DNA from: an uncultured virus (IMG/VR IMGVR_UViG_3300035520_000906)
Taxonomy: Duplodnaviria; Heunggongvirae; Uroviricota; Caudoviricetes
Direction: 5' to 3' (one strand)
Length of the DNA stretch: 64,000 nucleotides
Virus record (IMG/VR): IMGVR_UViG_3300035520_000906
How positions within the stretch are numbered: position 1 is the first letter of the stretch; each line of letters starts with the position of its first letter. Both the position numbers and the translations under genes were made by a program. This document shows, piece after piece, positions 7,869-64,000 of the stretch. The notes under the pieces were generated by a model. The model did no database searches, was not told the DNA's origin, and saw nothing but the letters and a program-made list of their open reading frames with translations.

Positions 7869-7889
7869 TTCTATATGCCTCCTATGTTA

Positions 7890-24716: not shown

Positions 24717-25187
24717 TTATAGGTTTAACCTCATTTTTGTTATGTCCTTGCTATTTACTTCTTGAACAGGCTCACCTACTTTGAAGTCCTTGTATACTTT
24801 AATTTCATTATTAAACACATGTAACCTGATTAATGGTACAAGTCTTTCTAATGAATATTTATCTCCCATTCCAAATGCAATAAGTCCATTTTTCTTATTG
24901 TATAAGTATAGTTGAACATCACCATACTTAGATACAAGTGACTTTAAGGACTGCTTCTGCATTACATTTATTGATTCTAATGTTGTGAAATCAAATATAT
25001 AATTATATGGAGCTATCTCTGTATCTTCTTTTAATATCAGTGTTTTTATTTTTTCTCCAAGTATTGCTCCATCTATTGATTCAGAAATCAACTTTGATTC
25101 TGTTTCAGTTACAGTACTATCTATACTTGGTAATGCTATATCATTTTCATCAACACTAAACAACTTAATGTTTTCTTCATTATCCAT
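24717..25187 (-). CDS. Hypothetical protein
   Basis: ORF overlapping the upstream stop. Confidence 0.7.
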   Translation of the reverse strand: MDNEENIKLFSVDENDIALPSIDSTVTETESKLISESIDGAILGEKIKTLILKEDTEIAPYNYIFDFTTLESINVMQKQSLKSLVSKYGDVQLYLYNKKNGLIAFGMGDKYSLERLVPLIRLHVFNNEIKVYKDFKVGEPVQEVNSKDITKMRLNL

Positions 25188-26916: not shown

Positions 26917-26940
26917 TTTTATTATTTCCTCTCTGTGTTG

Positions 26941-29900: not shown

Positions 29901-30561
29901 GCTGATACTTACTATTTATCTGTCCAAAACAGTTAATCTTTAAACCTGTTGTCTCTGTATCATATGCTATGGGTCCATTATACTGGTCAAAGAAGCTAAA
30001 CAATTTCTCTGCTGTTTCATCATCATTTACGATGAAGTATTTCTTTCTCTGTAGCCATGTTATATCATCTTTCTCCAGTGCAATTTCTTGAACTGAACGT
30101 GTTTGTATAGCATCAAGGTCATCATCTACTATGTTCAAGTCCTTCTTAATTGTAGTCAGCTTGACATACTCTATGTTAGTAGGCATCTGAAAACTTTCTA
30201 TGTACTCCATTTCCAATCTCTTGTCAGCAGACTGGATGAAAGCGCCCACTACTTCCCCTCTGTAAAGCTGTATAGTATATTCTACTTTGCTCTTTACAAA
30301 TTCATGAGATGTCATTGCTCCTAACTCAAATGGCTGTGGAGTTCCATTCTTAGATGTACAACTTTTAACTCCTGCCAGAACCATCTGGGCTAACTCTTTT
30401 GCTCTTACGTTATTAAATGAATAAGACCCAGTGTCATCTACTTTGTATGCTGATACAATTGTTCCAGATGTAATCAATATAACTTCAGTATGAGCCTTTG
30501 TATGACTCATGATTGCACCATATGTAACATTGTTTGTAGTAAACTCTCCACGTGTAAACAT
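26941..30561 (-). CDS. polA: Family A DNA polymerase with 3'-5' exonuclease
   Basis: Exo YDTETTG, AHNGSFE, YAPTD; motif A DADYSQIEYR, motif B RSAAKSFNFGIPYG, motif C IHDE. Confidence 0.95.
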   Translation of the reverse strand: MFTRGEFTTNNVTYGAIMSHTKAHTEVILITSGTIVSAYKVDDTGSYSFNNVRAKELAQMVLAGVKSCTSKNGTPQPFELGAMTSHEFVKSKVEYTIQLYRGEVVGAFIQSADKRLEMEYIESFQMPTNIEYVKLTTIKKDLNIVDDDLDAIQTRSVQEIALEKDDITWLQRKKYFIVNDDETAEKLFSFFDQYNGPIAYDTETTGLKINCFGQINSKYQHDLIKYNKEHKDNPIRADKLVGIIFCVEEDTSYYFPCFNRKFKNLYDDLQSPIRNRIIQNTKALYTVGKYRESDTCIAEYWRNTPADEITSDCILMERVRNILETKHIVAHNGSFEYKVGLQYWIDTNLKDDTMILHQVAYKFRNGGGKAEPSNLKYLSKKELGIDQWELHDFFPNWKPDKDGLVRRKPGSKINNANQIDFSYMDYQGTRVYAPTDGDCTLGLFHKFKSDLLQNHKEMEYIYNVEVIVACAIGYMEFYGHRIDESKILHARSETMANKSQIISEIRQMIDYADEKELAAYKEIKEFRENQAQLKLKDDEFNEKLIELVGKLDAAIESNAEKQINLGSSAQVCDLFYNKLQIPCSEEKQSVAKKVIKALIKEKNDDGTPKYPVVHLYSKYKNEETLLSKFFDNLIYFTYPGGFIFSSFGQIATNTGRMSCSKPNCQQYPKVITKIIIPRDGYVMIDADYSQIEYRVLTAMAGNDWLAELFSNPDSDYHTLMASLMYGVDYSAVTSSMRSAAKSFNFGIPYGMGLGSLAILLTGKNTAQTRDEAAEKMDDYFKNQPKTKKFFANVKEMAQVNGYTKTLFNRYRYYSFTDKDGNVNNAKKAAALRQAGNAVIQGTAADIFKIGVARNFSFIRNNHLLGKMLIINMIHDEQLMEVDVQNLNMQRIVAEVGKNMQFKIDGFPPLYIGAGVGKAWGYAKGKQAEIHPTLLQQFTEEAKDIPIWRTEEQRKEEPYVDPSKVLKYFDDRVVEFRRQKVADYLSNPENWHKTIYPAISGLINLQFNYGRGDDAKAYVGPNGETYSDQEFLELNIADFLKENNINADASWFRATDNKAEDEEEDKEYSEGDEDDDDIMDMVEGDADVKAFTIVDESDKTFGSTIHDMINVFGTCLLKQQRVCGINTKNMYYKRKDALIDYLMKYLCDEDDPDGYQIVFLTDANILKYTGIYVKNLNSDKLEEAYKNANGRESDYTQGDVKTRSQAK

Positions 30562-30635
30562 CTTTCTCTCCTAATCAATTTATAATTTCTTCCAAATATA
30601 TTTATGATATTTGATACTGTTAATCCTATAATTAT

Positions 30636-32636
30636 TTACTGGCCTATCCATTCTAATTTTAAGTTACCTGAATCGTATATCTTCAAAAAATTAAGTTTTT
30701 TCATTATTTCATCTTCATTTAGATTTTCTGTTTCAAGCCAATTTTTTATTAAATCTGTTTTTTGGACTTGGTACTTTGTTAATACTTCTTTTCTATCATA
30801 AGATACCCATACATAATTTGGCTCACTTATTGGTGTAAGTGTTGTCTTGAATCCTAATTTTAAATATTCATTACCTGTAAATTTTGATATGTCTATACAT
30901 ATTACTATTGATTGTGGATTATACTTATCACAAAAATAACTAAATAATTTTTCAAGACCTCCTACTATATCAATATTGAATTTATTACAATATCTTGTTA
31001 TCTCATATTGATATTTATTGTTGTGTTTGAATTTACTAAATGATATTACTGATATAATCTCATTATTATAAAATAATCCTAAGTTTATATCGGCATAGCT
31101 GTAATTTTGTAAACTGTATCTATCCAAGAAGCTCTTTGCACTATCATCACTTATCTCATGTACTTCTGTATCTGTGTCATATATTATTTCTAACTTATCA
31201 TGTATGCAACTCTTTATATGATTACATATCTTTTTCCTCTTATTGTCGTTGTCCCATTCATGCTCAAATACATGAATTAGGTGTATTCCTTGCTTTGCAC
31301 ATGATATTGTTTTTTCTTGATGATAATATTTATCCTTCATATCATCTGAGTGCCAGTAGGTTCCGTTAAACTCTATGGCTAGCTTCTTTTCTGGGATGTA
31401 GATATCAAGTTCCTGACCATTTAGTATTAATCTATCAGATTGTATTATGCTATACTTTGATATACTATTTACATATTCAAATAGTTCAGTCTCTTTATTT
31501 GAAATGTTTGGAGCTATGTCTACAAGGTTTTCTAGTTTATACGTATGTATTGCATTTAATATCACTGATTTACATACGTCTAAGTCTGTTTGTAATTGAT
31601 ATACAGTTGGTTTAGTATTATATTTCTTTAGGTATTCCTCCATTTGTTCTCTGTTTTCCAGTGTATTTATTTGCCACATAGATCTAGGATTGTGTATCCT
31701 ATTTGGAGTTATATCCATGTATCTTTCTAATAATGTCATCTTGGATAATTTCTTAGACATACAACCACATGATTTTGTTGTACCATTGCGTAATGCATGC
31801 CCATATATGTTTTTAATAGTTCCGCATGAGCATTTACACTTCCATTTCATATCTCCTACATACTCTAATACTGTCCACTCACCAAATTGCTGTTCTGCTA
31901 AATCTATAATATTGGCTGAATGACCACATGATGTTGATCTACCTAGTCTTAATGATGACCCAGATACCCTACCTATAGCACCACAGGAACACTTACACTT
32001 CCAATATCCATTGTCTATGTAGTCAATAACCTCCCATTCTCCAAAGTGTTTTCCTTTTAAATCTATAAAATTGTTTGTTGCATGCCCGCAAGATGTTGAT
32101 CTCCCAAGTCTAAGTGACACACCATCAACTATCCTAGTGTTTCCGCAAGAACACTGACATAGCCATTGTTTACTACCTGCATATTTAATAACTGTCCATT
32201 CCCCAAACTTTTCATTGGTTATATCTTTTATACTAGCATATCTGCTTTCATGCCCACATGAAAGTGATTTATGACTTGTTAAGCTATATGTACTTACCTC
32301 TCTTTCTTCTCCGCATGAACATCTACATAGATAATGCTGGTTACCAGTATATTTAAGAACACTCCATTCACCTATTTTTGTTCCTTCTAATTTATTACGC
32401 ATTTTATGACCGCATGATAATGATTTTCCTGATGTTAGAAAGTATTTTTGCATAGCCTTATACGTTCCACAAGAACACCTGCACAGCCATAGCTTATCCC
32501 CAAAATAACCCACAACGTGCCACTCACCAAATTCCTTACCAGTTAAATCATCTTTAATGTATCCGTTTAAGTTTTTAATATATTTTCTGTAGTTATTATC
32601 ATTTATATATGAATAATCTATTTTACTTTTTGGCAT
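30636..32636 (-). CDS. Homing-endonuclease-like protein: 5 Cys repeats plus Vsr/DUF559-like nuclease (paralog of 25180..26916)
   Basis: Five copies of the same repeat; ELDIYIPEKKLAIEFNGTYWH. Confidence 0.8.
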   Translation of the reverse strand: MPKSKIDYSYINDNNYRKYIKNLNGYIKDDLTGKEFGEWHVVGYFGDKLWLCRCSCGTYKAMQKYFLTSGKSLSCGHKMRNKLEGTKIGEWSVLKYTGNQHYLCRCSCGEEREVSTYSLTSHKSLSCGHESRYASIKDITNEKFGEWTVIKYAGSKQWLCQCSCGNTRIVDGVSLRLGRSTSCGHATNNFIDLKGKHFGEWEVIDYIDNGYWKCKCSCGAIGRVSGSSLRLGRSTSCGHSANIIDLAEQQFGEWTVLEYVGDMKWKCKCSCGTIKNIYGHALRNGTTKSCGCMSKKLSKMTLLERYMDITPNRIHNPRSMWQINTLENREQMEEYLKKYNTKPTVYQLQTDLDVCKSVILNAIHTYKLENLVDIAPNISNKETELFEYVNSISKYSIIQSDRLILNGQELDIYIPEKKLAIEFNGTYWHSDDMKDKYYHQEKTISCAKQGIHLIHVFEHEWDNDNKRKKICNHIKSCIHDKLEIIYDTDTEVHEISDDSAKSFLDRYSLQNYSYADINLGLFYNNEIISVISFSKFKHNNKYQYEITRYCNKFNIDIVGGLEKLFSYFCDKYNPQSIVICIDISKFTGNEYLKLGFKTTLTPISEPNYVWVSYDRKEVLTKYQVQKTDLIKNWLETENLNEDEIMKKLNFLKIYDSGNLKLEWIGQ

Positions 32637-46565: not shown

Positions 46566-47286
46566 TTCTTTGTTCCTCCTGAAACTTGCTTTACTTTGTT
46601 TACATCTACATAATGACAACAAGTTGTACCTATTGTATGATTTATTTTGTTTGTTGTCATTGTATACCAACAATGATTTATTTCTGTATCTCTATATGCA
46701 CATGTTCTACATATCATTGGTATCCCATCTGTTTTTTCTTCTAAGTTTACTAATAACTTAGCTACCTTACGTCTTTCTTTTTCTTCTTGTGTACAAGTAT
46801 TAAGTATACTTATATACTTGTACCAGCATCACTTTTAGACGTTTTTTCTTTTTTGTGAGGTCCTTTCTTTACTGTATATCTTATATTATTGTTAATGATA
46901 AACTGTTTTAATACTTGGTAACTGACACAAATTTTATTTGCCATTGAGCTTATTGATTCGCCGTTATCAAAATCCTGTTGTAGTTTATCTACACCATATT
47001 TAACAATCTTCTCTGTATCAAGTTCTTGAGCACTCTTCTTAGGTTTTTTAATTTTATCTGTGTTAACCTTATCTTCTTGTATAGAATTTATATTGCTTTC
47101 TGTTTTCTCTACACAATCATGTGCTTTTACTAACTTGAACCCTCGTTTGATGATTTTGTTCAAGTCATCTATACACTTATCACACAAGTCATAACTATTA
47201 GTTCCTACTGTAATTGTATTTATATGTCCGTCAGTTACAATTTTACTACATTGTTTATTATCACATCTAAATGCTTCTACTTTCAT
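46562..47286 (-). pseudogene. Zn-finger/HTH/Cys-rich protein interrupted by an 8-bp duplication
   Basis: ORF stops at 46810 inside AAGTATAT-AAGTATAC; the other frame stays open to a TGA overlapping the next ATG. Confidence 0.6.
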
Positions 47287-47995
47287 ATTTTTGTCCCCTA
47301 TTCTTAAAATTAAAAGTTTCTAATAATATATTAATGATTACTACTACGATACACACCAATTGATTTGTTGATACTATATTTCTATTAGAGTAATATCTTA
47401 AATAATCTAAGCTAAATTTTAATATTGCATATGATATCAATGTTACTCTTACTGTTTTACTTTGTAACTTGTTTCTCAATAAATTAAGTATTATAAACAC
47501 AATTAAGAATGTTACTGATTCAAATAATTGTACTGGAAATAAATTCTGCATGTTCTTCTTAGTATCTATGTATGTAATATTTAATAATCCAGTATATCTT
47601 ATTCCATAGCAGCATCCTGCTAATAAGCACCCTATTTTTGATATTGAATACATAAGTCCTAAACTTAATATGTATGTTTCATATAATATATCCTTATTGT
47701 GTTTATTCATTTTTGTATATATTGATGTTCCAATTATCAAGCCTATCATTCCGCCTAAGCTTGAGAATCCTAACTGATTTGCTTCTTTATATTTTATCAG
47801 TTGCTCTATCATTGTAAATGTTATGCTACAATATAGAATTAATATTGTATTTAAAAACATTGAATATGCTATATGCTTATTTTCTACTCCGTTGTTTCTT
47901 AGTTTAACTGCTACATATAAATAACTTATTAAGAATGATAACATAAAACATATAGCATACTGTGATATTTTCCAATGTTGTATTGTTATTATCAT
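47267..47995 (-). CDS. lgt: Prolipoprotein diacylglyceryl transferase-like protein
   Basis: GFSSLGGMIG, KIGCLLAGCCYG, FPVQLFES, KFSLDYLR; multi-TM. Confidence 0.85.
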   Translation of the reverse strand: MIITIQHWKISQYAICFMLSFLISYLYVAVKLRNNGVENKHIAYSMFLNTILILYCSITFTMIEQLIKYKEANQLGFSSLGGMIGLIIGTSIYTKMNKHNKDILYETYILSLGLMYSISKIGCLLAGCCYGIRYTGLLNITYIDTKKNMQNLFPVQLFESVTFLIVFIILNLLRNKLQSKTVRVTLISYAILKFSLDYLRYYSNRNIVSTNQLVCIVVVIINILLETFNFKNRGQKYESRSI

Positions 47996-51777: not shown

Positions 51778-52884
51778 TTAATATCCTCCTGACTTTAATT
51801 GCTTTGTAAGTACCTTTCTATCTCTGTGTACTACATCTTCTATATCGTACTCTTCATTAAGTTCCTTTACACTTTTTAATCCTGTATACCACCCATATAC
51901 TCTTGATTCAAACATATCATCACTTGCAACTACATTAGAATCTTCATTCATACCAGTCATTCCAGCAGTGTATTTCTCAAATTTTTGTCTGTATGATTCA
52001 TAGTTTTCTTCTGCTTTATTAAACTGTACACATATGTCTGATGTATACATTCCAATGCTTCTGCAACTCATTACTATATCATTTATTACTGTGTATAATA
52101 GTACAACTCTTGTGCTGTCAATCATATCTGTATGAGCTGTATTACAAATAATATTTGATATCTCAATAAGTTTCATTGGAGTTGCTTCTTCATCATAGTC
52201 TTTAGTATCAATAATATTAAAGAAGAACACTGCTATTAACTTATCATCATTTGCCTTTCTAACTTCATACATAAAGCCCTTATCAATATAATTATTTGAT
52301 GCTTCATTTATATAGCTTGTATCCATATTATAAAATTCATTATAGGCTGTGATAAAGTTCTCTATTTCATCTGTTAATTTCTTAATCTTATTGATTTTTA
52401 TATTAACCTTATAAGTTACAAGTCTCTTTTTATGTGCTATTTTTGTATTCCACAGTGGAACTTCCAATGCCATTGTATTACTGTCAAACATCAATATGTT
52501 TTTATCTGTGAGCCATATGTACTCATTCAAATATTTTCTTGTAATCTCTATTAACTGTTTCTTATATTTATTTTTTAGATATGCTAATGTGCCATATACT
52601 GCTATGATATCATCAGTTTTTTTACTGTTACAATCACTACATAATGGTATAAGATTTTCAATCTTATTGTTTCCACCTTTATTTAAAGGTATAAAATGAT
52701 CAACTGTAAAGTCTTTATCCCCAACTGCTATATGTTTACCACACATAGCACATTTGCAATCAGTTTTCTTTGCTACTGCTTCTTTTATATCTCTAGTCAA
52801 CCATTCTCTCTCGTAGTAATTGCATCTATTAAGTTTTACACTATACTCAGAAGTACTTTCTTCCAATTTCTTTATGTCTCCCAT
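51778..52884 (-). CDS. HNH endonuclease with C-terminal extension
   Basis: CAMCG...TVDHFIPLNKGGNNKIENLIPLCSDCNSKK. Confidence 0.85.
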   Translation of the reverse strand: MGDIKKLEESTSEYSVKLNRCNYYEREWLTRDIKEAVAKKTDCKCAMCGKHIAVGDKDFTVDHFIPLNKGGNNKIENLIPLCSDCNSKKTDDIIAVYGTLAYLKNKYKKQLIEITRKYLNEYIWLTDKNILMFDSNTMALEVPLWNTKIAHKKRLVTYKVNIKINKIKKLTDEIENFITAYNEFYNMDTSYINEASNNYIDKGFMYEVRKANDDKLIAVFFFNIIDTKDYDEEATPMKLIEISNIICNTAHTDMIDSTRVVLLYTVINDIVMSCRSIGMYTSDICVQFNKAEENYESYRQKFEKYTAGMTGMNEDSNVVASDDMFESRVYGWYTGLKSVKELNEEYDIEDVVHRDRKVLTKQLKSGGY

Positions 52885-52983
52885 TGAAGTCCAATGCCCT
52901 CTCTTTCTACCCCTAAATATTAAAATAAGCAACTAACTATACTAAACAGTCAGTTGCTTATGTTGTACCTTAATTTTTAGTTG

Positions 52984-54414: not shown

Positions 54415-55343
54415 TTATCTTAAATTGTATGATTTTATCCAACAATGAATCGTTGAATCAGTTCTCCCATACATGCTGGCAATTTGTTTCTTTTGTATAC
54501 CAGCATCTAAGAGTTGTTTTAACTCTTCTTTAGATGGTTTTGGTGACTTTCCCTTTGCTGCTACATTTGAACATGCATTACACATTCCAGTCTTTGATTG
54601 TGATGTTATTGGTTTACCACATATTCTGCATGTTATTTTCTTATTACTTGCTTTAGCTACTTTACATTCTTTCATGTTATCATATTCATTTTTCCAGTCA
54701 TTAAATTGTTTATAATACTTATCTATGTCTTCACAATACAAAAAATGCATACTTAAATATTTATTTTTATACTTACATGCCTTACTTATTGCTTCTACCA
54801 CTGTCCATTTATTTAATGCTTGTGGTATATTTTCACTTATTAAGTACTCGGCACATTGTGAATAATTAACAAAAATTTTATTTAATTCTACACATATTAT
54901 CTGTCTACTTTGTGTTCTTATTTTAACCTTATTAGCTGATAATAATGTCAAAATTGTAATATCTGAACAATTATATTTTCTTGCTATATATATAACGAAC
55001 TATATCCAGATTTATATAATTGTATAATATCATCTATATCATCTTCTAATTTAGAATATGGTGCATTTCCACCAGGTGTTGAATTATACCCATTCTTATA
55101 TGAGTTAAAATATGAAATCCAATAAATTTCTCTTTCATTCAGTAGCTTACTATCACATTCCTCTATTAATTCAATATAAAAGTTATCAGACCCATACTTT
55201 TTTATTGCTCTATATAATTTAAGATGTTCACCTCTAGTATTTGCTATGTGTTCCTCAAATCTTTTACTTATAGGTCTTATTGTTTGCCCTATGTAAACTC
55301 TGCTATTAATCTTATTTCTAATTGCATAAATATATCCTATCAT
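54415..55343 (-). pseudogene. GIY-YIG homing endonuclease split by an extra TA in a (TA)5 run
   Basis: GYIY...YIGQT...REIYWI...GYN; removing TA near 54985 fuses both ORFs through HTH SSLYIARKYNCSDITILTLL. Confidence 0.8.
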
Positions 55344-55958: not shown

Positions 55959-56540
55959 TTAAATGTTTCCTCTAGGGAAATTCATTCTTACATATGATAT
56001 TGCATCACTACTCAATAAGTCAAATGCATTGTCCCCATACAAAAATTGAAGCTCATTTGCAATCATTAATTGTGTGATTAGTCCCTTGTTATCGTCTGCT
56101 AAACCAGATAAATCTTTGAAATCTTTTTCTCTATATGATACTAATTTCATACATATAGCATCTAAATCACATATTTTATATACGTTTAAGCAACTGTATG
56201 ATTTTACTGGAATTGCATTTGCCTTTAACCTAACACTAAATGATTTTGTTTTAGTTGCATCTGTATTTAACCAGTCACTTGTGATTGAATACATATGTTT
56301 TACTTTGTTTATACATGACTTTATATCAATGGATGGCTCAATATAACTATCAATATCTTCTGTCATTGTTCTAAATGTATGCCCTAATATCAATGATGAT
56401 CCACCAACTAATAACATATCAATCTTAATGTACCCATATTTTTCAAATATGCAATTATTAAGTGCTTCCAAATATATGTTCATGTTATATTTACTTATAT
56501 ATGGATATTCAGCTTCGTGTGGCATGTATTCCTCCAACAA
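55959..56540 (-). CDS. DUF6036 / AbiEii-like nucleotidyltransferase
   Basis: LLVGGSSL...RTMTEDIDS...MKLVSYREKDFKD. Confidence 0.8.
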   Translation of the reverse strand: MLEEYMPHEAEYPYISKYNMNIYLEALNNCIFEKYGYIKIDMLLVGGSSLILGHTFRTMTEDIDSYIEPSIDIKSCINKVKHMYSITSDWLNTDATKTKSFSVRLKANAIPVKSYSCLNVYKICDLDAICMKLVSYREKDFKDLSGLADDNKGLITQLMIANELQFLYGDNAFDLLSSDAISYVRMNFPRGNI

Positions 56541-57000
56541 CTGTATCTATCTCTGACACGATTAAATTGTATTTATAGAATATATCTATTCTATTTTTAT
56601 AACTATCTAGTATCTTATTATATGCCCCAAAGTTACTAAACATAACAGGAGTCTCACCAAATAATAGTTTATCTAATTTCTTACCATTGTATAAACTAAC
56701 TATCTCTGGTAATTCGAGATTTTCGCTATTACAAATATATTCAATGTATGCTATTGCATATAGTTGCTCCCACTCTCTCCACAATGATATTCTTTCTTTC
56801 GAAAGATATTCATATATTAACTTTTCACTACCCCAAGATTTTCTGTAATGCTCTAATGCACTTATAAAGGAATAGTAATTTGTATAATCATATTCTTTGT
56901 AATAATCTAAATGCAGTGATTCAAATTCCTCTTTGCATTTTAATTGGTACTCATTGTATTGTTTTTCTTCTTCTGGAGTAATATCAAACATATTTTTCAT
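56509..57000 (-). CDS. Partner (putative antitoxin) of the DUF6036 gene
   Basis: Overlaps the downstream gene; LYAIAYIEYIC...LPEI...Y..KKL. Confidence 0.6.
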   Translation of the reverse strand: MKNMFDITPEEEKQYNEYQLKCKEEFESLHLDYYKEYDYTNYYSFISALEHYRKSWGSEKLIYEYLSKERISLWREWEQLYAIAYIEYICNSENLELPEIVSLYNGKKLDKLLFGETPVMFSNFGAYNKILDSYKNRIDIFYKYNLIVSEIDTVVGGIHATRS

Positions 57001-57020
57001 GCTATTTTCTCCTATTAAAG

Positions 57021-57127
57021 TGACATATACCTCTAGTTCTAGTGAACTAATCGACTAGAACGATCTGAAACTGAAACCCATAAGAGAAAGAGAGGGTCGT
57101 TCACGTCAAACTAGATAATATATGTCA
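57021..57127 (-). ncRNA. Long interrupted hairpin with pyrimidine-rich loop
   Basis: TGACATATA/TATATGTCA, TCTAGTT/AACTAGA, GAACGA/TCGTTC nested stems. Confidence 0.5.
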
Positions 57128-57159
57128 GTACTAAACCTCTAGTAAGTTTAATACTTAAT

Positions 57160-57469
57160 TCATTTCAATAACCTACACATGCACCCTATCGTCTGCACCC
57201 TGCCTCTATCACTTCTATACAGAAGTGACCTATCCAACATCCTTGGTTATTGAACATTGTCATCGCCACCAGTGATGACTTACAGTAGTCATTTGCCACC
57301 TTGAGAAGTTCGTTACCGACTCGTATGGGAACTTAGGTTCTACTTCTCTCAACTACTCCATAGTCGTATCGTTGTCGACCAACGTCAACCCTTAATCATT
57401 CCCGCTCATGCGGGCTCATCCCTGAGGAACATCATATAAAATATGTGCTATTCCGTTGAGCATCCTCAG
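57160..57469 (-). ncRNA. Unrecognised ~310-nt structured RNA, copy B
   Basis: Paralog of 57531..57835 with identical 23- and 33-nt blocks and compensatory stem changes. Confidence 0.8.
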
Positions 57470-57530
57470 TAGATTAGCAGACTTTTACTGCATTGATCAC
57501 TTAAGCATACAGTTTAATTATATGCTTAAG

Positions 57531-57835
57531 TCATTACATAGCCTACTGCTAGATAAATCTAGTCCACAACCTCTCCACAACCTTAGCTATGTACATTGCC
57601 ACCGCCACAGTGATGACTTATGATAGTAATTTAACAACCTTGAGAAGTTTGTTACCAACTCATACTCCCTAGGCCTAATAAACTTTCGTTTAAACTCCTG
57701 TTTGTATGGGAACTTAGGTTCTACTTCTCTCAACTATCCCTTAGCTGTATCGCTTTCAGCCGACGTCAACCATTAACTGTTTAATGAGGAACACATATAA
57801 AACGAGTCATAAGTGCTATTCCGTTGAGCATCCTC
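57531..57835 (-). ncRNA. Unrecognised ~305-nt structured RNA, copy A
   Basis: Starts 3 nt after tRNA-Leu; covaries with copy B. Confidence 0.8.
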
Positions 57836-57838
57836 TAA

Positions 57839-57918
57839 TGCGGATAGAGGGACTCGAACCCTCAAGCCGAAGCGTGGCAGCTTAAATGCCATGTGTTTGC
57901 CAATTTCACCATATCCGC
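57839..57918 (-). tRNA. tRNA-Leu(UAA)
   Basis: GCGGATA acceptor, TGGCA-TT TAA GC-TGCCA, GTTCGAGTC. Confidence 0.95.
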
Positions 57919-58746
57919 TTATTTTATACTTTCTATAAATTTATTGTATTTTCTCTGCATAACTCCGTATTGTTTATTCTTTGTTATATAGAGCTGTCTA
58001 AATTTTGTAAAGGATTCTTTACTGTGTATATAGATAATCCTAATACTGTCTCTACTGCTTACACTGTATTCTATACCAATACCTCTTAGTATTTCTTGTA
58101 TACCTTCTGCATTTGAATAATTAGATGCTATTGTTATAGCATTAGGAGATACTGACACAGAACCATCCCCATCAAAGAACCCAATCATAAAATCTATTCT
58201 ATACTCGTAAGGTATATAATTTATAAATGGTATGTCCTTGTACTTTTTACCCTGTACTATCCCAAATTTTGCAAGGTCATTTACTATTTCATCTGAAATT
58301 ATCTTAATGTTTACTGCATCAAATTCATGTTTAATTCCATTGCTATCAGTATAACTAGCTGTGTGGTCATGAACTTCATAGTCAGACTCAGTAAATTCTA
58401 GAAATCTTTGTAATGTCTCTCTATCTCTTGCATTTAATACAAATCTTAATGAGTTATCTACAACACTTCCATCAGATGCTATAAATCCTAACCAATATGC
58501 TGTATCTGCATTAATTGTTTTGAATATATTGTCATTTACCTTATGCTTTCTGAAATCTTTTTCAGGACATTTTTCTTTTCCAGTGTATCCCTTTAATCCT
58601 TGATTTGTCTTAAATACACCAATCCTAATAGCATGTTCTCTATATGTTTTGTAGTTTATTCCAAGCATTCTTGCTGCTTCAGCAGCTGATCTAGAGTTCT
58701 CTGCCGCATATGCAATTTGTGCATCTGTTACATCTATTGTATTCAT
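57919..58746 (-). CDS. Double-motif LAGLIDADG homing endonuclease with N-terminal HTH
   Basis: AYWLGFIASDGSV and DFMIGFFDGDGSV; stop codon abuts the tRNA. Confidence 0.9.
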   Translation of the reverse strand: MNTIDVTDAQIAYAAENSRSAAEAARMLGINYKTYREHAIRIGVFKTNQGLKGYTGKEKCPEKDFRKHKVNDNIFKTINADTAYWLGFIASDGSVVDNSLRFVLNARDRETLQRFLEFTESDYEVHDHTASYTDSNGIKHEFDAVNIKIISDEIVNDLAKFGIVQGKKYKDIPFINYIPYEYRIDFMIGFFDGDGSVSVSPNAITIASNYSNAEGIQEILRGIGIEYSVSSRDSIRIIYIHSKESFTKFRQLYITKNKQYGVMQRKYNKFIESIK

Positions 58747-58769
58747 TTCATTACACCCGCTTTATAAAA

Positions 58770-59305
58770 GTGGCTTAAGGTCACCACAACCGCACATCTG
58801 TTGATTACTGGAACATTTGCTCTTTCCAATAGTTGTCTTTCCAACTGTCCACCAGTTTAACCTAGCTAATGCCACGTAGTATAGACTTCAGCTTAAGAAC
58901 TCAACCTTCCTAAGTCATACCCGATTTATGTCGGGATATCCACCCACTCTATCTAACTGGCAAGTAATCCACTATGGTGCTTCCAACCAGTTTGTAGAAC
59001 TCAACCACATTTGTCTACTTGTGCTACCCCAATATACTTCACAGTAGCTTTCCACATTCAATTTTGCAGGTCATTCCAACCCACTGGACAGACTCAACCA
59101 TCAACATACTGTCTTGTATCGCCCCATTGACTTGCCCATAGCGACTTTCCAACCACATGCATTCTCGGGAACTTCCCGAAGGTCCATGCAAACCTTTCAA
59201 ATTGCCGTCGACAAGCAATACGAGGTAGGTCATTCACACTAGCTTAACTACACCTGAGCTGCTCGATAACATGCCGCCTTGTTAAGTTCCCTCTAACAGT
59301 GCTCT
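58770..59305 (-). ncRNA. Large ornate ncRNA (~540 nt), ROOL/GOLLD-like in size and context
   Basis: GC-richer non-coding block after tRNA-fMet with more than 10 hairpins and repeated GGTTGAGT and GGTTGGAA motifs. Confidence 0.7.
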
Positions 59306-59310
59306 TTGAG

Positions 59311-59384
59311 TTGCGGGGATAGGACTTGAACCTACATACTCTTGGTTATGAGCCAAGTGAGCTTCCATTGCTCGTCACCCCGCG
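59311..59384 (-). tRNA. tRNA-fMet(CAU), initiator-like
   Basis: CGCGGGG with C1:A72 mismatch; CTTGG-CT CAT AA-CCAAG. Confidence 0.9.
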
Positions 59385-59394
59385 ATAATATAAA

Positions 59395-59524
59395 TTTGTG
59401 ACCTTCCACAATCACAATGCTGAGAAAATCTGTAAATCCACAGTTGTATACAACTGCCTCAGCCCTACACATTAGTGCCTCAGAAGGTTTCCGCTTTTAT
59501 GTGCCACCTACAAGTAATCACAAA
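59395..59524 (-). ncRNA. Candidate 130-nt structured RNA
   Basis: TTTGTGA/TCACAAA, GCACAT/ATGTGT, GCTGAG/CTCAGC, CAGTTG-TATA-CAACTG. Confidence 0.55.
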
Positions 59525-59585
59525 GAAGAAAATGTACACTTTCTTTACTGAGTGTGTACTAACTCTTTTAAGGTCTTTCGACCAG

Positions 59586-59659
59586 TGGACCATGTAGGAC
59601 TCGAACCTACGACCGCTCGGTTATGAGCCGAATGCTCTGACCAACTGAGCTAATGGTCC
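59586..59659 (-). tRNA. tRNA(CAU), probably Ile2 (lysidine)
   Basis: GGACCAT acceptor and body typical of Firmicute tRNA-Ile2; CT CAT AA loop. Confidence 0.85.
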
Positions 59660-59687
59660 AAATTTTAATGTAGTTCTTATCTTTTAA

Positions 59688-59763
59688 TGTAACAAGGAAA
59701 TAACTTACTAACTGATGCCTCGTCAATGATGTCTTACCTGCGTTCAGCCACTTCCTTACTACA
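59688..59763 (-). ncRNA. Candidate small RNA, 18-bp G-U-rich stem
   Basis: TGTAGTAAGGAAGTGGCT pairs with AGTTATTTCCTTGTTACA. Confidence 0.55.
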
Positions 59764-59765
59764 AG

Positions 59766-59841
59766 TTGGAATGCTGGGATTCGAACCCAGGACAGACGTG
59801 GGGTATAAGCCTACCGCTCTAACCAACTGAGCTACATTCCA
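59766..59841 (-). tRNA. tRNA-Ile(UAU)
   Basis: TGGAATG/CATTCCA acceptor, GTAGG-CT TAT AC-CCCAC (one mismatch), GTTCGAATC. Confidence 0.85.
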
Positions 59842-59889
59842 TTAATATGTATTATCAGAAATTACTTTCTGTCTCAACCTTACTTAATT

Positions 59890-59918
59890 ATTATATCATC
59901 TTTACTTTCTTTTGTCAA
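59890..59918 (-). promoter_or_regulatory. Consensus sigmaA promoter
   Basis: TTGACA-17 nt-TATAAT with extended TG. Confidence 0.9.
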
Positions 59919-59982
59919 GAACTTTTTAAAACCTTTTTCAAATAAATTTGAAATCAATTTTTATATCCTTAACACATTTATT

Positions 59983-60011
59983 ATATTATCATATAATATT
60001 TATTTTGTCAA
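59983..60011 (-). promoter_or_regulatory. Second tandem sigmaA promoter
   Basis: TTGACA-17 nt-TAATAT with extended TG. Confidence 0.65.
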
Positions 60012-60046
60012 CTACTTTTTTCAAAAATTTTTTATATTTTGAAAAG

Positions 60047-60129
60047 TGTAGGTAGTGGGACTTGAACCCACACTCATTAAATGAACAGCATCCTTAGTGC
60101 TGCCTGTCTGCCAATTCCAGCATACCTAC
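60047..60129 (-). tRNA. tRNA-Leu(AAG)
   Basis: GTAGGTA acceptor, CAGCA-CT AAG GA-TGCTG, long variable arm. Confidence 0.9.
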
Positions 60130-60142
60130 AAATCTTTATAAG

Positions 60143-60222
60143 TGCTCCCTGAGGGACTTGAACCCTCACCCTCTCGGAACAGATTTTGAATCTGTCGTGT
60201 CTGCCTATTCCACCAAAGGAGC
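60143..60222 (-). tRNA. tRNA-Leu(CAA)
   Basis: GCTCCTT acceptor, ACAGA-TT CAA AA-TCTGT. Confidence 0.95.
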
Positions 60223-60235
60223 TTACTTATTAAAG

Positions 60236-60312
60236 TGGAGCCTACGTGAATCGAACACGCCTGATTTCCTCTTTGCAAGAGAGGTGACCACCCCAATGCA
60301 GTCCCAGACCCC
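60236..60312 (-). tRNA. tRNA-Ala(UGC)
   Basis: G3:U70 pair, CCTCT-CT TGC AA-AGAGG. Confidence 0.9.
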
Positions 60313-60379
60313 ATATTACAGGAACCTATTATTCTTTACACCAAAAGAGTTTTAATTGCTGTATGGTTCCCAATATAAA

Positions 60380-60453
60380 TCGACGTTGCCGGATTCGAAC
60401 CGACGGCCTCTTGATCCCAAATCAAGCGCTCTACCAAACTGAGCCAAACGTCG
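60380..60453 (-). tRNA. tRNA-Pro(UGG)
   Basis: CGACGTT acceptor, CTTGA-TT TGG GA-TCAAG. Confidence 0.95.
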
Positions 60454-60465
60454 TTATTATTTTAG

Positions 60466-60544
60466 TGTGCCTAGAGGGACTTGAACCCTCACGCCGAAGC
60501 AACTGGGCTTAAACCAGTTGTGTCTGCCATTCCACCACAGGCAC
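60466..60544 (-). tRNA. tRNA-Leu(UAA)
   Basis: GTGCCTG acceptor, ACTGG-TT TAA GC-CCAGT. Confidence 0.95.
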
Positions 60545-60579
60545 ATTTATTTGTATCTCTTAATCATTTCTACACTCTT

Positions 60580-60607
60580 ATTATACATCATAATTACTTT
60601 TTGTCAA
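60580..60607 (-). promoter_or_regulatory. sigmaA promoter heading the tRNA array
   Basis: TTGACA-16 nt-TATAAT. Confidence 0.8.
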
Positions 60608-60679
60608 CTACTTTTTTAAAAATTTATTAGAAAAATTTCATAATGTTTTACTAATTTTTAGTTAAGTTTAATAAACATA

Positions 60680-60775
60680 CTAACTGTATTGGTATGTTTC
60701 AATGTTTATCAATCTTAAGTTTGTTTTGGCTCCCAATATAGCAGGGTCACCGAGGTCAGCTAATGCGGGGTCCAT
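60680..60775 (-). CDS. 31-aa small ORF
   Basis: AGGAGG RBS; MDPALADLGDPAILGAKTNLRLINIETYQYS. Confidence 0.4.
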   Translation of the reverse strand: MDPALADLGDPAILGAKTNLRLINIETYQYS

Positions 60776-60794
60776 CTTGTTTCCTCCTGTACAT

Positions 60795-60833
60795 AAAAAT
60801 AACCGTTAAGCTCATTCAATGGCTTAACGGTTA
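60795..60833 (-). terminator. Intrinsic terminator
   Basis: TAACCGTTAAGC/GCTTAACGGTTA stem plus T-run. Confidence 0.75.
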
Positions 60834-60874
60834 GTATCTTTATTATGAAAGTCATTAAATTAGCTAAAACCCTA

Positions 60875-60979
60875 TTAAATTTGCACGTTTATAAGACCTA
60901 TCAAAGCTAATATTGATAGGTTTGCTAGTGCTGCGGGTAAGCTAACTATGCTATTTACATTATTTCTAATGCAATCCAT
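60875..60979 (-). CDS. 34-aa hydrophobic small ORF
   Basis: AAGGAG RBS; MDCIRNNVNSIVSLPAALANLSILALIGLINVQI; followed by a terminator. Confidence 0.45.
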   Translation of the reverse strand: MDCIRNNVNSIVSLPAALANLSILALIGLINVQI

Positions 60980-61034
60980 GACTTTTTCTCCTTAAATATT
61001 TATTAAAAACATACTTTTATTATGTGAATGTAGT

Positions 61035-62228
61035 TTATTTCGTCTTTAATTTTTCTCTCAGGCTTTCACAATCTATTTGTCCAAGCTTTCTTTGTTTCTT
61101 TAATTCACTTATGCATTCTCTTATCTTTATATCTCTAATTGAATCAACACTTATAGCTGTTACATATGATGTTTCTAATTCAGTACTTATGTATAAACTT
61201 TGTAATCTCTCAAGCCTCATAAAATTTGTAACTGATAATGATTTTAAATTCTTAGGAAACTTAACATCAACTGGATATGTATTCATAAATATTCCATCAT
61301 GCAACTTCTCTATTTTTGTATCGTATATATCTATGATTTCTAATGGAGTAAATTTGAATGCCTGACTACCTATCAATCTTAAATCTCCACTTATAGAAAT
61401 TTTATGTATGTGAGATGTTAAGAATGCTCCAGTTCCTATTATACTAAGTTTATCATTAAAATCTACTGTCAAATCACACTCTGAGCAATATGCAAATGCA
61501 AAATCTCCAATCTCTGTTACATTGTCTCCTAATCTAACATAAGATAGTCCTTTACAATTTGCAAATGCTGTTTTACCTATTTTTTCTACTGAATTACCTA
61601 TGTAAATACTTTTTATATGTGTATCACAAAAAGATTTGTCTGCTATGTATTTTACAAAGTCAGGTATTACTAGCTGACTATTTATGTCTTTGCTATTTCT
61701 ATATCCTGTAACTACTAATTCATTGTACAAGTCAAAATCATAAGATAATGTACTCTTACCAGTCATTGCTAATTTATAATTATATGATTCCATCTTATAA
61801 ATTAGATATGCTCGTTTATTTATTGTAGGTATCTTACCAAATTTAGTTGTTATACCATTACCAACAAATTGAATACCACTAAACTTATCTCTGTTGCTCT
61901 TTATTTCTTGTAATGTCATTCTTCTTAAAATACAATTATTATCTGCCACTAGATATGCTCCATCTTGGAATTTAAAAAGAATAACTAATTTATTTCTTAG
62001 GTCTACTACTGTACCTTTTCTATTATAGTTTACAAGTATTATCTTTTTATATTTACTGTCTGGTACGTAATGTTCTGCCTTTACTGCTTTCCCACTTTGT
62101 ATCATACTATCTATTTCGTATTGAGTTATACTTGTTATTGTCATATAATTTGTATTTATTGCACTATATATTTCTCCATAGGGTTCTTCTGATGCTTTAT
62201 ATAATATAATTGTATAATTACTATTCAC
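61035..62228 (-). CDS. BspA-type LRR protein
   Basis: IGKTAFANCKGLSYVRLGDNVTEIGDFAF. Confidence 0.88.
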   Translation of the reverse strand: MNSNYTIILYKASEEPYGEIYSAINTNYMTITSITQYEIDSMIQSGKAVKAEHYVPDSKYKKIILVNYNRKGTVVDLRNKLVILFKFQDGAYLVADNNCILRRMTLQEIKSNRDKFSGIQFVGNGITTKFGKIPTINKRAYLIYKMESYNYKLAMTGKSTLSYDFDLYNELVVTGYRNSKDINSQLVIPDFVKYIADKSFCDTHIKSIYIGNSVEKIGKTAFANCKGLSYVRLGDNVTEIGDFAFAYCSECDLTVDFNDKLSIIGTGAFLTSHIHKISISGDLRLIGSQAFKFTPLEIIDIYDTKIEKLHDGIFMNTYPVDVKFPKNLKSLSVTNFMRLERLQSLYISTELETSYVTAISVDSIRDIKIRECISELKKQRKLGQIDCESLREKLKTK

Positions 62229-62255: not shown

Positions 62256-63050
62256 TTATCTTTTAAATAAGCTGAATATTGACACTTTCTTATCTTTATC
62301 TCCAGGATATTCTGTCTCAATAAGTTTGTTAGCTGTCATTTTATTTTTTATTGATTGCTTTCTATAATTGTTTTTATAGGTATCTCTAAGTCTTACTTCA
62401 AATTCACTTAATATATCTCTGCTACCACACCTATAAACCTTAACTTCAACTGTACTCTTAAACACATCAGATATGTCTACTTGATTTGATTTGGTTTCTA
62501 TCTCACCCTCATGTATTTCAGTTGAGTCACTTCTATCTGATACATCATCATTGTATCTTATAATTACTTTTAAATTTTCAGGTTTTTGATTATTTACATT
62601 AAATAGTATATTGTAATCTGAAAAATAGTATGTTCCATTCTCAGTCATGTCACCATAATATCTTGTTCCGCAGTCTACTTTATTTATTATTTTAACATCT
62701 GCATTATACTTATACATACCGAGTAATGCAGCAGCTTTTACTGCTATATCATCTATTTCTGCAAAGGTGTCTTTCGGATTTTTTCTTGTAGGTGCATCCT
62801 TAGTTGCATGCTCACCCTTAAATTCTTTTCTCAAACTGAAATCTGATGAGTCACTTATTTTTGGTGTTGTTGACATTAATCTTCCATCTGATGTTAATGT
62901 TAAATTATCAACTTTTAGTTTATTTGATGCTATTAAATTTTTTAACTCAGTTGCACCTATGTCCTGTATATTTCTGTTAGCATCTTGTAGTTTGTATCCT
63001 ATTATTTTTCCTGTATTGTCTCTAAATTTATATATACAGGTTACTTCCAT
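62256..63050 (-). CDS. Hypothetical protein with recurrent N-terminal module
   Basis: EVTCIYKFRDNTGKIIGYKLQD...ELKNLIASNKLKVDNLTLTSDGRL. Confidence 0.8.
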   Translation of the reverse strand: MEVTCIYKFRDNTGKIIGYKLQDANRNIQDIGATELKNLIASNKLKVDNLTLTSDGRLMSTTPKISDSSDFSLRKEFKGEHATKDAPTRKNPKDTFAEIDDIAVKAAALLGMYKYNADVKIINKVDCGTRYYGDMTENGTYYFSDYNILFNVNNQKPENLKVIIRYNDDVSDRSDSTEIHEGEIETKSNQVDISDVFKSTVEVKVYRCGSRDILSEFEVRLRDTYKNNYRKQSIKNKMTANKLIETEYPGDKDKKVSIFSLFKR

Positions 63051-63071: not shown

Positions 63072-64000
63072 CTATCTGTTTAGTTCAATTACCTCCATGA
63101 AATAATCATAATCTTGCCTGTATAAACTGTACATTTCCACTAAGCTTATCCAACCAAGTCTATGAAATTCTTCTTCTGTTATTGCTTTGTAATTTGCTTT
63201 ATTATGTTTTCCAGTTTTCATAGCTCGTAATGTATCTTTAGTGTATAAGTCTATTTCCTTTAAAGATTTAGTTGTTGATATTCTAGGAAATGAATACATT
63301 GCCCAACCAAATGTTGTATCATTACTTATTGCACAAAATAAATTTTTATTATTAAGCTGTCTTATTATTCTTCTTGCTACTATTTCAAATGACTCATGAT
63401 CTTTTTCAATACATATTCTACCTTTTCTACACCATCTATGTATTTGTTTCTTAATCTTTTGTTTTGCATGGTCAGATATGTCTATCTTCCCATCGCCCAT
63501 TAGCTTAAGTCCTAAATACTCTATGTCATCTCCAGGCTCGAACCATGTATATTTTTCTGGATTCATTGTTAATCCATACTGCTCCAAAAAATCAATTATT
63601 ATATCTAAGTCTTTTTGTAAATCCTCTTTTGACTTATCTAAAACTATTATGTCATCACTATATCTTGCATATACCTTATTTTTATCTTCAAAGTATTCAT
63701 CACAAGGTTTTAAACACCAATTTGCAAAGAAGCTTCCAAATGCACACCCAGGAATTAATGCCTTCCATTCTTCAATTTCTTTGCCGTTCCACATAACTTT
63801 ATCAGATAACATTAAATTTTCAACAGTCTTTTTTAATCCCCCATTGAATAATTCATTTATCATTTCAGCAACCTTTTCTCTTGAAACGCTGTTGAAATAA
63901 GCATGTATGTCAACCTTTACACCAAATCTAAGTTCATCATTTCTATTATCCTTGATGTATTGAATTGCATGACCTGTACTTTCACCAGTTTTATATGAAA
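63072..64000 (-). CDS. Reverse transcriptase (YSDD) with maturase-like C-terminus; 5' end outside the window
   Basis: Frame open to the edge: SYKTGES..AI, KVDIHAYFNSV, LIPGCAFGSFFAN, YARYSDD, GLTMNPEK, IEYLGL, GWAMY..SLKEIDLY..LR. Confidence 0.92.
   Translation of the reverse strand, partial: SYKTGESTGHAIQYIKDNRNDELRFGVKVDIHAYFNSVSREKVAEMINELFNGGLKKTVENLMLSDKVMWNGKEIEEWKALIPGCAFGSFFANWCLKPCDEYFEDKNKVYARYSDDIIVLDKSKEDLQKDLDIIIDFLEQYGLTMNPEKYTWFEPGDDIEYLGLKLMGDGKIDISDHAKQKIKKQIHRWCRKGRICIEKDHESFEIVARRIIRQLNNKNLFCAISNDTTFGWAMYSFPRISTTKSLKEIDLYTKDTLRAMKTGKHNKANYKAITEEEFHRLGWISLVEMYSLYRQDYDYFMEVIELNR

Follow-up and report, generated by a model that had tools for sequence, protein, structure and literature searches.

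Diverged tandem copies of an uncatalogued ~300-nt structured RNA in the tRNA island of an uncultured phage

The ROOL and GOLLD RNAs are encoded in phages and prophages, often near transfer RNA (tRNA) islands, and one GOLLD was located downstream of a Met-tRNA; their function is unknown and they form RNA-only cages (10.1101/2024.12.08.627333). The characterised UG2, UG28 and UG27 reverse transcriptases use dedicated, highly expressed structured RNAs, and the UG2 and UG28 RNAs were present >1000-fold above the enzyme messenger RNA (PMC9226505). The UG27 locus of gut phages consists of a reverse transcriptase and two accessory proteins, with a variable tandem array in an intergenic region. Its units of ~135-167 nucleotides (nt) are structurally conserved and sequence-diverse, are gained and lost, and occur additionally in neighbouring intergenic regions; the central hairpins, bracketed by AUCN7UANAG and UUYA, template complementary DNAs (cDNAs) of 50-100 nt (10.64898/2026.09.22.753630). 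In this work, a 64,000-nt stretch of DNA of an uncultured virus (Caudoviricetes; IMG/VR record IMGVR_UViG_3300035520_000906), referred to below as the window, was analysed. It was concluded that two tandem elements on its minus strand, copies A and B, are diverged paralogs of an uncatalogued ~300-nt structured non-coding RNA. They represent a new RNA family of a known kind, namely large folded RNAs of phage tRNA islands, or possibly reverse-transcriptase RNA arrays. The tRNA cluster of phage T4 also contains small stable non-tRNA RNAs of unknown function, which are co-transcribed and processed with the tRNAs; these are ~120-140 nt long, much shorter than the A/B units, and we know of no similarity between them and A/B.

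The A/B RNAs share with ROOL and GOLLD a phage-borne location in a tRNA island, a multi-junction fold with probable long-range pairings, the lack of a known protein partner or function, and a high depth in RNA libraries. As with the one GOLLD, a large (563-nt) RNA lies beside them directly after tRNA-Met. They differ in their size of ~300 nt versus ~580 and ~800 nt and in being tandem diverged paralogs. With the UG27 arrays they have in common a probable gut-phage origin, the tandem arrangement, a kept fold with diverged sequence and a variable unit content; like the UG27, DRT2/UG2 and DRT9/UG28 RNAs, they combine a class 2 UG/Abi reverse transcriptase nearby with a very high RNA-library depth. 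In contrast to UG27, the neighbouring enzyme is of the UG26 type and the RNAs lie 5.2 kb away from it, in a separate promoter-driven tRNA island. The A/B units are also twice as long, and the UG27 start motif AUCN7UANAG has no minus-strand match in them. When the locus was judged as a UG27 array, the tandem units were thus found, whereas the arrangement of the locus and the unit size and motif did not agree.

An earlier note on this DNA, made from the letters alone, had proposed two non-coding copies about 370 nt apart that share exact blocks of 23 and 33 nt and differ by the gain or loss of whole hairpins. All of these statements were borne out. Both copies are present on the minus strand, with a unit length of 305-310 nt and a start-to-start distance of 368-381 nt; 57813-57835 is identical to 57445-57467, and 57704-57736 to 57323-57355. 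The indels of 7, 19, 42 and 30 nt are each a self-contained hairpin. The elements of the locus are as follows, R1 being the covariance model of the A/B core.

57531-57835, minus strand: copy A, structured RNA, 228.2 bits with R1
57468-57530, minus strand: spacer between the copies, 63 nt
57530-21 / 57509-00, minus strand: 10-bp spacer hairpin
57491-88 / 57480-77, minus strand: P0, a small hairpin with the 7-nt loop UAAAAGU, followed by a 9-nt linker and then by B
57160-57467, minus strand: copy B, structured RNA, 172 bits with R1

The region 57001-57918 holds tRNA-Leu(UAA), A, the 63-nt spacer and B, and contains no open reading frame (ORF) above 55 amino acids (aa). The longest ORFs overlapping A/B have 55 aa on the plus strand and 48 aa on the minus strand, and neither is common to both copies. 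A search of the 64-kb window with nhmmer and the covariance model returned exactly A and B, the next best score being 10 bits; no third copy or structural relative was found, and R1 run unfiltered on 58700-61100 reached 6.7 bits at best (E 0.14). The alignment of A with B was identical in 199/258 columns. The identity was unevenly distributed: 42/46 aligned columns in the 5' domain (P1/P1a), 115/135 in the core (P2; P3 around P4, P5 and the GUAA-capped P7; P8), 7/14 in the linker and 31/59 in the fast-evolving 3' hairpin domain (P9).

A structure of nine helices common to A and B (P1, P1a, P2, P3, P4, P5, P7, P8 and P9; 48 pairs) was derived and is listed below together with the copy-specific helices, all on the minus strand.

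P1: A 57835-31 / 57790-86; B 57467-63 / 57428-24
P1a hairpin: A 57813-57794; B 57445-57433
P1b hairpin: A 57785-57772; in B, a B-only 19-nt hairpin 57414-10 / 57405-01
P2: A 57761-57 / 57747-43; B 57380-76 / 57366-62
P3: A 57738-33 / 57627-22; B 57357-52 / 57289-84
P4: A 57729-23 / 57648-42; B 57348-42 / 57309-03
P5: A 57721-18 / 57713-10; B 57340-37 / 57332-29
P6, an A-only insertion of 42 nt: closed by 57708-04 / 57665-61
P7, with the GUAA loop: A 57658-57649; B 57319-57310
P8: A 57617-12 / 57603-598; B 57279-74 / 57264-59
P9, variable domain: A 57593-85 / 57543-35; B 57254-45 / 57173-64, with inner hairpins

Every listed pair of A and B forms in the window sequence, and the shared structure is paired in 96/96 cells. 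Both partners differ between the copies in 7/48 pairs (P2, P3 and P9 contribute two each and P7 one), and a single partner differs in 2/48, in each case by a U-A to U-G change in P8; no pair was broken, and all 16 of the 16 substitutions in the 96 helix columns kept the pairing. The observed pair counts were matched by 4/500 column shuffles, and six slid control structures gave 0 double changes and 31-54% pairing, both controls being partly circular and not independent, since the structure was derived from A and B themselves. G-U pairs occupy 4/96 cells, where the opposite strand would have A-C. Together with the direction of the tRNAs, ORFs and promoters, this places the RNA on the minus strand. 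Copy B folded with a z-score of -2.99, and 0/100 shuffles folded equally well. For the 5' domain, a tRNA-like shape in which a 9-nt GG loop caps a 4-bp stem is indistinguishable from an alternative pairing, because the nucleotides involved are all invariant.

The four stem pairs that had been quoted as compensatory in the earlier note were all found in the sequence and are compensatory, and the GNRA loop named there, a GUAA, is conserved in both copies. The view that a selected multi-junction fold is kept in diverged paralogs was upheld as well: the differences in the shared helices keep the pairs, and relatives add further pair-keeping changes. The evidence that the fold is under selection was judged to be good. 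Apart from the helices, several invariant blocks remain unpaired in the fold model, e.g., UGCUCAACGGAAUAG, GGUUGACGU and the junction around GUUGA. The CUCAAC and GUUGAG blocks are candidates for a long-range pairing, and a quasi-palindromic GACGUY is conserved in A/B.

The relatives were found in animal-gut RNA libraries. In a sequencing-run index, 12/12 runs holding part of 57000-59400 were animal-gut RNA libraries, with word shares of 0.05-0.11. Contigs were compared for 4 of the 12 runs, from four studies, at a likeness bar of 85%; the word shares of 0.05-0.08 of the other eight runs were not used as evidence. In 4/4 compared libraries, contigs of 226-549 nt matched 57254-57835 at mostly 90-95% likeness. 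Among the A/B contigs, word depths of up to 7077 (run of 413 million letters) and 5064 (run of 527 million letters) were recorded. Read literally, such depths would by our estimate amount to roughly half a percent of all letters; the level of an RNA is poorly reflected by contig depth, and RNA libraries may contain DNA. A high expression of the A/B relatives is suggested. The ORFs at 56900-57000 and 57919-58746 had near-zero cover in the four runs, a result that was not used as evidence, as the coding DNA of relatives may fall below 85%; of the data on this part, use was made solely of the contig joining across 57484-58787.

Since single contigs span A, the spacer and B, the tandem arrangement is retained in relatives. 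With the fold defined from A/B alone, the listed substitutions of the relatives' contigs were scored on 126 pairs (the shared and the copy-specific helices):

Deepest contig (run X1): 28/30 substitutions listed, 9 in helices (196/453 positions); 3 double changes kept, 2 single changes kept, 1 pair broken
Contig of run X2: 23/43 substitutions listed, 9 in helices; 3 double changes kept, 2 single changes kept, 1 pair broken
Third contig (run X1): 12/22 substitutions listed, 7 in helices; 2 double changes kept, 2 single changes kept, 1 pair broken

The listed substitutions hit the helices less often than the share of positions predicts (9/28 in the deepest contig). In that contig, two of the double changes are in P2 of B and one is in P9 of A, and both one-sided changes lead to G-U; across the contigs, such changes occur in P3, P5, P6 and P9a. 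As the contigs share ancestry, they represent few distinct change events. Outside the shared helices, each strand of the 10-bp spacer hairpin is shorter by 2 nt in the relatives, and high-depth contigs cross the spacer. A P0-like hairpin precedes copy A there, with the same 7-nt loop and with G-C in place of the A-U of the window, and the B-type P1b hairpin recurs with an AUGA loop and an altered stem length. Joints in contigs of the relatives also point to further unit types: at one joint the P5-to-P6 region is swapped for 21 other letters, and at another the 5' domain is separated from the 3' part by 115 other letters.

The family had not been recognised in the earlier note, where RNase P, tmRNA, 6S, raiA and group I/II introns had been set aside. 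Rfam 15 (4227 models) applied at the gathering score to the 64-kb window returned nine matches, all of them tRNA, and none to A/B; at E<=10 in 56900-58000, the matches besides tRNA scored 12.9-20.1 bits against gathering scores of 40-100. No covariance-model match to the families set aside was obtained, and ARAGORN reported no tmRNA. The T-box model did not match A/B, nor did the Intron_gpI, group II and self-cleaving ribozyme models at E<=10. The assignment of A/B to ROOL (RF03087) or GOLLD (RF01183) was rejected, since even at E<=10 neither covariance model matched A/B or the 563-nt RNA.

Sequence databases were searched in several ways. Exact and degenerate patterns from four conserved A/B blocks had no match in IMG/VR, and a two-block pattern had none in the JGI metagenomes. 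Three GTDB stretches containing the two-block pattern were rejected as chance matches, their BLAST likeness being limited to the pattern and R1 giving no match at E<=10. Neither A/B nor the 563-nt RNA found anything by blastn in GenBank phages. A search anchored on the 163-aa protein encoded 3' of copy B gave no relative in IMG/VR and, in JGI, 594 pattern stretches of which 0 were confirmed; searches of IMG/VR anchored on the DNA polymerase of the window and on an alignment of the reverse transcriptase gave 13 and 12 stretches, respectively, and 0 confirmations. The reverse transcriptase found no match by tblastn in GenBank phages, and its profile hit 0/401 Bacteroidota genomes in a search without a positive control. 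Protein relatives of the window genes do occur in JGI, ENA and Logan assemblies. In the available parts of the literature on phage structured RNAs, no description of the A/B RNA was found.

The tRNA island around A/B contains ten tRNA genes, all on the minus strand, between 60544 and 55391; the locus lies inside this island, and the phage replication genes of the window comprise a DNA polymerase, a primase-type zinc-ribbon protein and DUF5131 proteins, in agreement with a phage location near a tRNA island. The putative promoters of the island, each called from the consensus match alone, and the elements that precede copy A are given below.

60607-60580, minus strand: sigma-70 consensus site, 12/12 positions, heading the island
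60011-59983, minus strand: sigma-70 consensus site, 10/12 positions
59918-59890, minus strand: sigma-70 consensus site, 12/12 positions, also heading the island
58747-59309, minus strand: second large non-coding RNA, 563 nt (RNA 58770-59309), directly after tRNA-Met 59310-59384
58787-58770, minus strand: terminator-like hairpin, ending the 563-nt RNA region
57919-58746, minus strand: LAGLIDADG homing endonuclease gene, 275 aa (PF14528, E 1.4e-11)
57839-57918, minus strand: tRNA-Leu(UAA), 3 nt upstream of copy A

The 563-nt RNA, the UG26 reverse transcriptase and the RNA-library contigs had not been mentioned in the earlier note. The G+C content of the 563-nt RNA is above that of its surroundings, and it contains three GGUUGAGUYCU-type modules and several GAAA loops. 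No homology to A/B was found (best R1 score 6.7 bits), Rfam gave no match, and a pattern made from it had no match in IMG/VR. It precedes copy A in the relatives as well, where its middle 177 nt are swapped for 182 other letters. Its two ends (58793-58972 and 59145-59291) are matched by RNA contigs with lengths of 343-548 nt and a word depth of up to 1765 in run X1. Its positions 19-27 are complementary over 9 nt to the invariant UAAGUUCCC of A/B. This complementarity is weakly above chance, with 3 eight-mers versus 0.56 expected and 25/500 shuffles reaching it.

The tRNA-Leu(UAA) at 57839-57918 is a second copy of the tRNA-Leu(UAA) at 60465-60544, with 73% identity over 67 nt. A relative contig of run X4 joins 58788 to 57483 and thereby skips the 58787-58770 hairpin, the LAGLIDADG gene, the tRNA-Leu and copy A, the joint reaching the loop of the P0 hairpin before copy B; in other relatives a small hairpin takes the place of the tRNA before copy A. 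As this contig runs across the endonuclease gene, the tRNA-Leu and some or all of copy A, the adjacency of the tRNA is secondary. The bases GCGGU before the joint resemble the 5' half of P0, so that 58787-57836 can be read as an insertion into a P0 ahead of A. This stretch of ~950 nt looks like an endonuclease and a tRNA that arrived jointly, and the ancestral order was inferred to be tRNA-Met, 563-nt RNA, P0, A, spacer with P0, and B. In the earlier note, tRNA processing had been suggested to release copy A. The gap of 3 nt (UUA) behind tRNA-Leu is real; however, the adjacency is not ancestral, and such a release could therefore apply to this phage alone.

We tentatively proposed that A/B is a novel tRNA-island RNA that is stable and acts in trans, similar in kind to ROOL and GOLLD, which function as RNA particles and not as gene leaders. 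This reading is plausible but still falls somewhat short of probable. The ten same-strand tRNAs, the promoters with 12/12 consensus positions and the second large RNA right after tRNA-Met speak for it. According to this proposal, transcription of the island would be driven by its own strong promoters, and the units would be cut from a polycistronic precursor at the flanking hairpins, the adjoining tRNA-Leu giving a second cutting point in this phage. The units might then accumulate as stable free RNAs and act in trans via the invariant unpaired blocks, which could make tertiary or intermolecular RNA-RNA contacts, while the quasi-palindromic GACGUY could let units pair mutually.

A number of observations weigh against this proposal. 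Copy A folded with a z-score of +0.13, and 53/100 shuffles folded equally well. The covariation is based on two paralogs and on the variant tables of close (~93% identical) relatives. One listed substitution breaks a pair of P9a in two contigs, although in the deepest one nearby single-base deletions create a new 4-bp stem; in the third contig, with 12/22 differences listed, the broken pair is in P3. The P2 change of the relatives turns copy B into the state of copy A, and gene conversion is possible, while the loop between the P2 strands changes to a state unlike A. The contigs are uninformative on RNA ends, strand and level, so that a discrete ~300-nt species is presumptive. ROOL is twice as large as the units and dissimilar to them. 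Trans action and oligomerisation of A/B are purely conjectural. In addition, a reverse transcriptase is encoded only 5.2 kb away, and enzymes of its class normally have a structured RNA dedicated to them, which favours the strongest alternative.

63072-63998, minus strand: class 2 UG/Abi reverse transcriptase, UG26 type, N-terminus cut by the window end
62256-63050, minus strand: 264-aa ORF, no family, between the reverse transcriptase and the tRNA island
61035-62228, minus strand: LRR_5 protein, between the reverse transcriptase and the tRNA island

Located 5.2 kb upstream of copy A and on its strand, the reverse transcriptase was identified by an RT_UG26 match (E 4.7e-70, 234 bits), RT_UG27 of the sister group being second (E 5.1e-31, 106 bits). 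Its relatives form 440 protein clusters at E<=1e-10; among the 120 matches listed of these 440, the identity was 61-100% and many were on contigs of 350-721 kb, a single 100% row without a source being read as the protein of the window itself. From these matches, the UG26 enzyme seems to belong to the conserved genes of a megaphage-type lineage. It is unlikely, yet deserves serious attention, that A/B, perhaps with the 563-nt RNA, are the RNA partners or the template array of this enzyme, each unit consisting of a conserved enzyme-binding scaffold and of the variable P9 (between the conserved CAAUGU and AUGA) that would be copied to cDNA. The position and strong conservation of the enzyme and the habit of its class agree with such a role, as do the tandem arrangement, the kept fold of the units, the divergence of their hairpin domain (31/59) and a unit content that varies in relatives; given one such gene per several-hundred-kb genome, the chance of a distance <5 kb is estimated at ~2%. 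Yet the DNA between the enzyme and A/B holds two ORFs, eight tRNAs, another RNA, separate promoters and a terminator-like hairpin (near 60800-60833). The units have ~300 nt versus 135-167 nt for UG27, and AUCN7UANAG has no minus-strand match in 57160-57835 (14 matches in the window versus 12.8 expected). The 5' flank of the enzyme, outside the window, may hold the true partner, as UG2 and UG28 keep their RNA there. No RNA for UG26 is described in the available parts of PMC9226505 or of the wider literature searched. The more specific version, in which A, B and the other unit types form a scaffold and variable-hairpin array that the UG26 enzyme would copy into short cDNAs, is doubtful. If it were true, the array and cDNA-hairpin biology of UG27 would extend to UG26, with a different and larger RNA fold.

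The remaining explanations concern the genes on both sides of A/B, of which those downstream are:

56509-57000, minus strand: 163-aa protein, no family, directly 3' of copy B
55959-56540, minus strand: DUF6036 nucleotidyltransferase, 193 aa, overlapping the 163-aa gene by 32 nt

It is improbable that A/B is a long structured 5' leader regulating in cis the operon of these two genes. The orientation is the same, no terminator-like site was found downstream of copy B before the start codon at 57000, and the 77-86% identity of the 163-aa protein relatives implies that RNA and gene may travel together. Known leaders, however, do not resemble ~680 nt of tandem copies followed by another 160 nt up to the start codon; riboswitch and leader families gave no match, and the listed high-depth contigs stop at the unit borders or within the units, the left-most of the listed pieces starting at 57245. 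On the upstream side, the LAGLIDADG gene, the further HNH and GIY-YIG genes of the window, the GNRA loop, the multi-junction architecture and the possible CUCAAC/GUUGAG long-range pairing would suit remnants or variants of a self-splicing intron or ribozyme tied to the adjoining endonuclease. This origin is very unlikely: besides the failure of the Intron_gpI, group II and self-cleaving ribozyme models at E<=10, there is no interrupted host gene, and A/B are flanked by a tRNA, the spacer and a 5' untranslated region, i.e., not by exons. Moreover, one relative contig bridges the endonuclease and tRNA stretch while other relatives keep both RNA copies, from which it follows that the RNA exists without the endonuclease. 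Finally, a tandem direct repeat beside a tRNA gene might act at the DNA level, as an origin, a recombination site or an insertion scar behind the tRNA gene, and integration scars are common next to tRNA genes. This is hardly credible here, as the copy differences keep pairs in a strand-specific way with G-U pairs, RNA libraries contain short contigs of the relatives at high depth, the repeat unit excludes the tRNA 3' end, and the adjacency of the tRNA is secondary.

To our knowledge, large folded RNAs of unknown function are rare and each new class opened new biology; the ROOL/GOLLD cages, OLE and the defence reverse-transcriptase RNAs are examples of such classes. Considering that A/B are diverged tandem paralogs absent from Rfam, belong to a lineage with marker genes on contigs of 350-720 kb and have relatives that form very high-depth contigs in animal-gut RNA libraries, they appear to be one of the main products of an uncultured giant phage. 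The adjoining 563-nt RNA and the nearby UG26 enzyme give a testable entry into both the RNA and the enzyme questions, and the R1 covariance model is now available for mining large contigs.

The source is probably a large, megaphage-type gut phage. The lineage is suggested by the relatives of window proteins on very long contigs, such as the 32-33%-identical relatives of a 453-aa neighbour protein on contigs of 526 kb and 182 kb. The window is AT-rich (G+C 28-38% in 2-kb windows), the minus strand carries every ORF taken for a gene, and in its gene content the window corresponds to a replication and accessory region of a large phage. For the 163-aa protein, related cluster representatives show 86%, 77% and 43% identity, and its predicted fold had a mean local confidence (pLDDT) of 49.3, too poor for a structure search; together with the DUF6036 gene it may form a two-gene module. 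The other non-coding spacers between the tRNAs (59385-59584, 59660-59764 and 60313-60379, minus strand) contain several tight hairpins, one of them GAAA-looped; 59397-59498 is covered by low-depth RNA contigs, and the spacers have no Rfam match above noise. Other features of the window are as follows.

25180-32636, minus strand: family-A-type DNA polymerase, 1206 aa, with endonuclease genes on both sides
51778-52932, minus strand: HNH endonuclease gene, closer to the tRNA island than the DNA polymerase
54984-55343, minus strand: GIY-YIG endonuclease gene, closer to the tRNA island than the DNA polymerase
in the window: CHC2 zinc-ribbon (DnaG-type primase) protein
in the window: Toprim, SbcCD-like and Dam methylase proteins
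in the window: BspA-type LRR (leucine-rich repeat) proteins

On each side of the DNA polymerase lies an endonuclease gene, of 578 and 666 aa, and the two share their PHROG families, whose annotation is HNH or homing endonuclease; the region is unusually dense in homing-type endonucleases, yet has no Rfam intron call. Host-like accessory genes were observed on the minus strand at 13136-13882, 47267-47995 and 6987-8696; these encode an EAL-domain protein of the cyclic-di-GMP phosphodiesterase type, LGT, i.e., a prolipoprotein diacylglyceryl transferase, and two DUF5131 proteins, which are adjoining paralogs.

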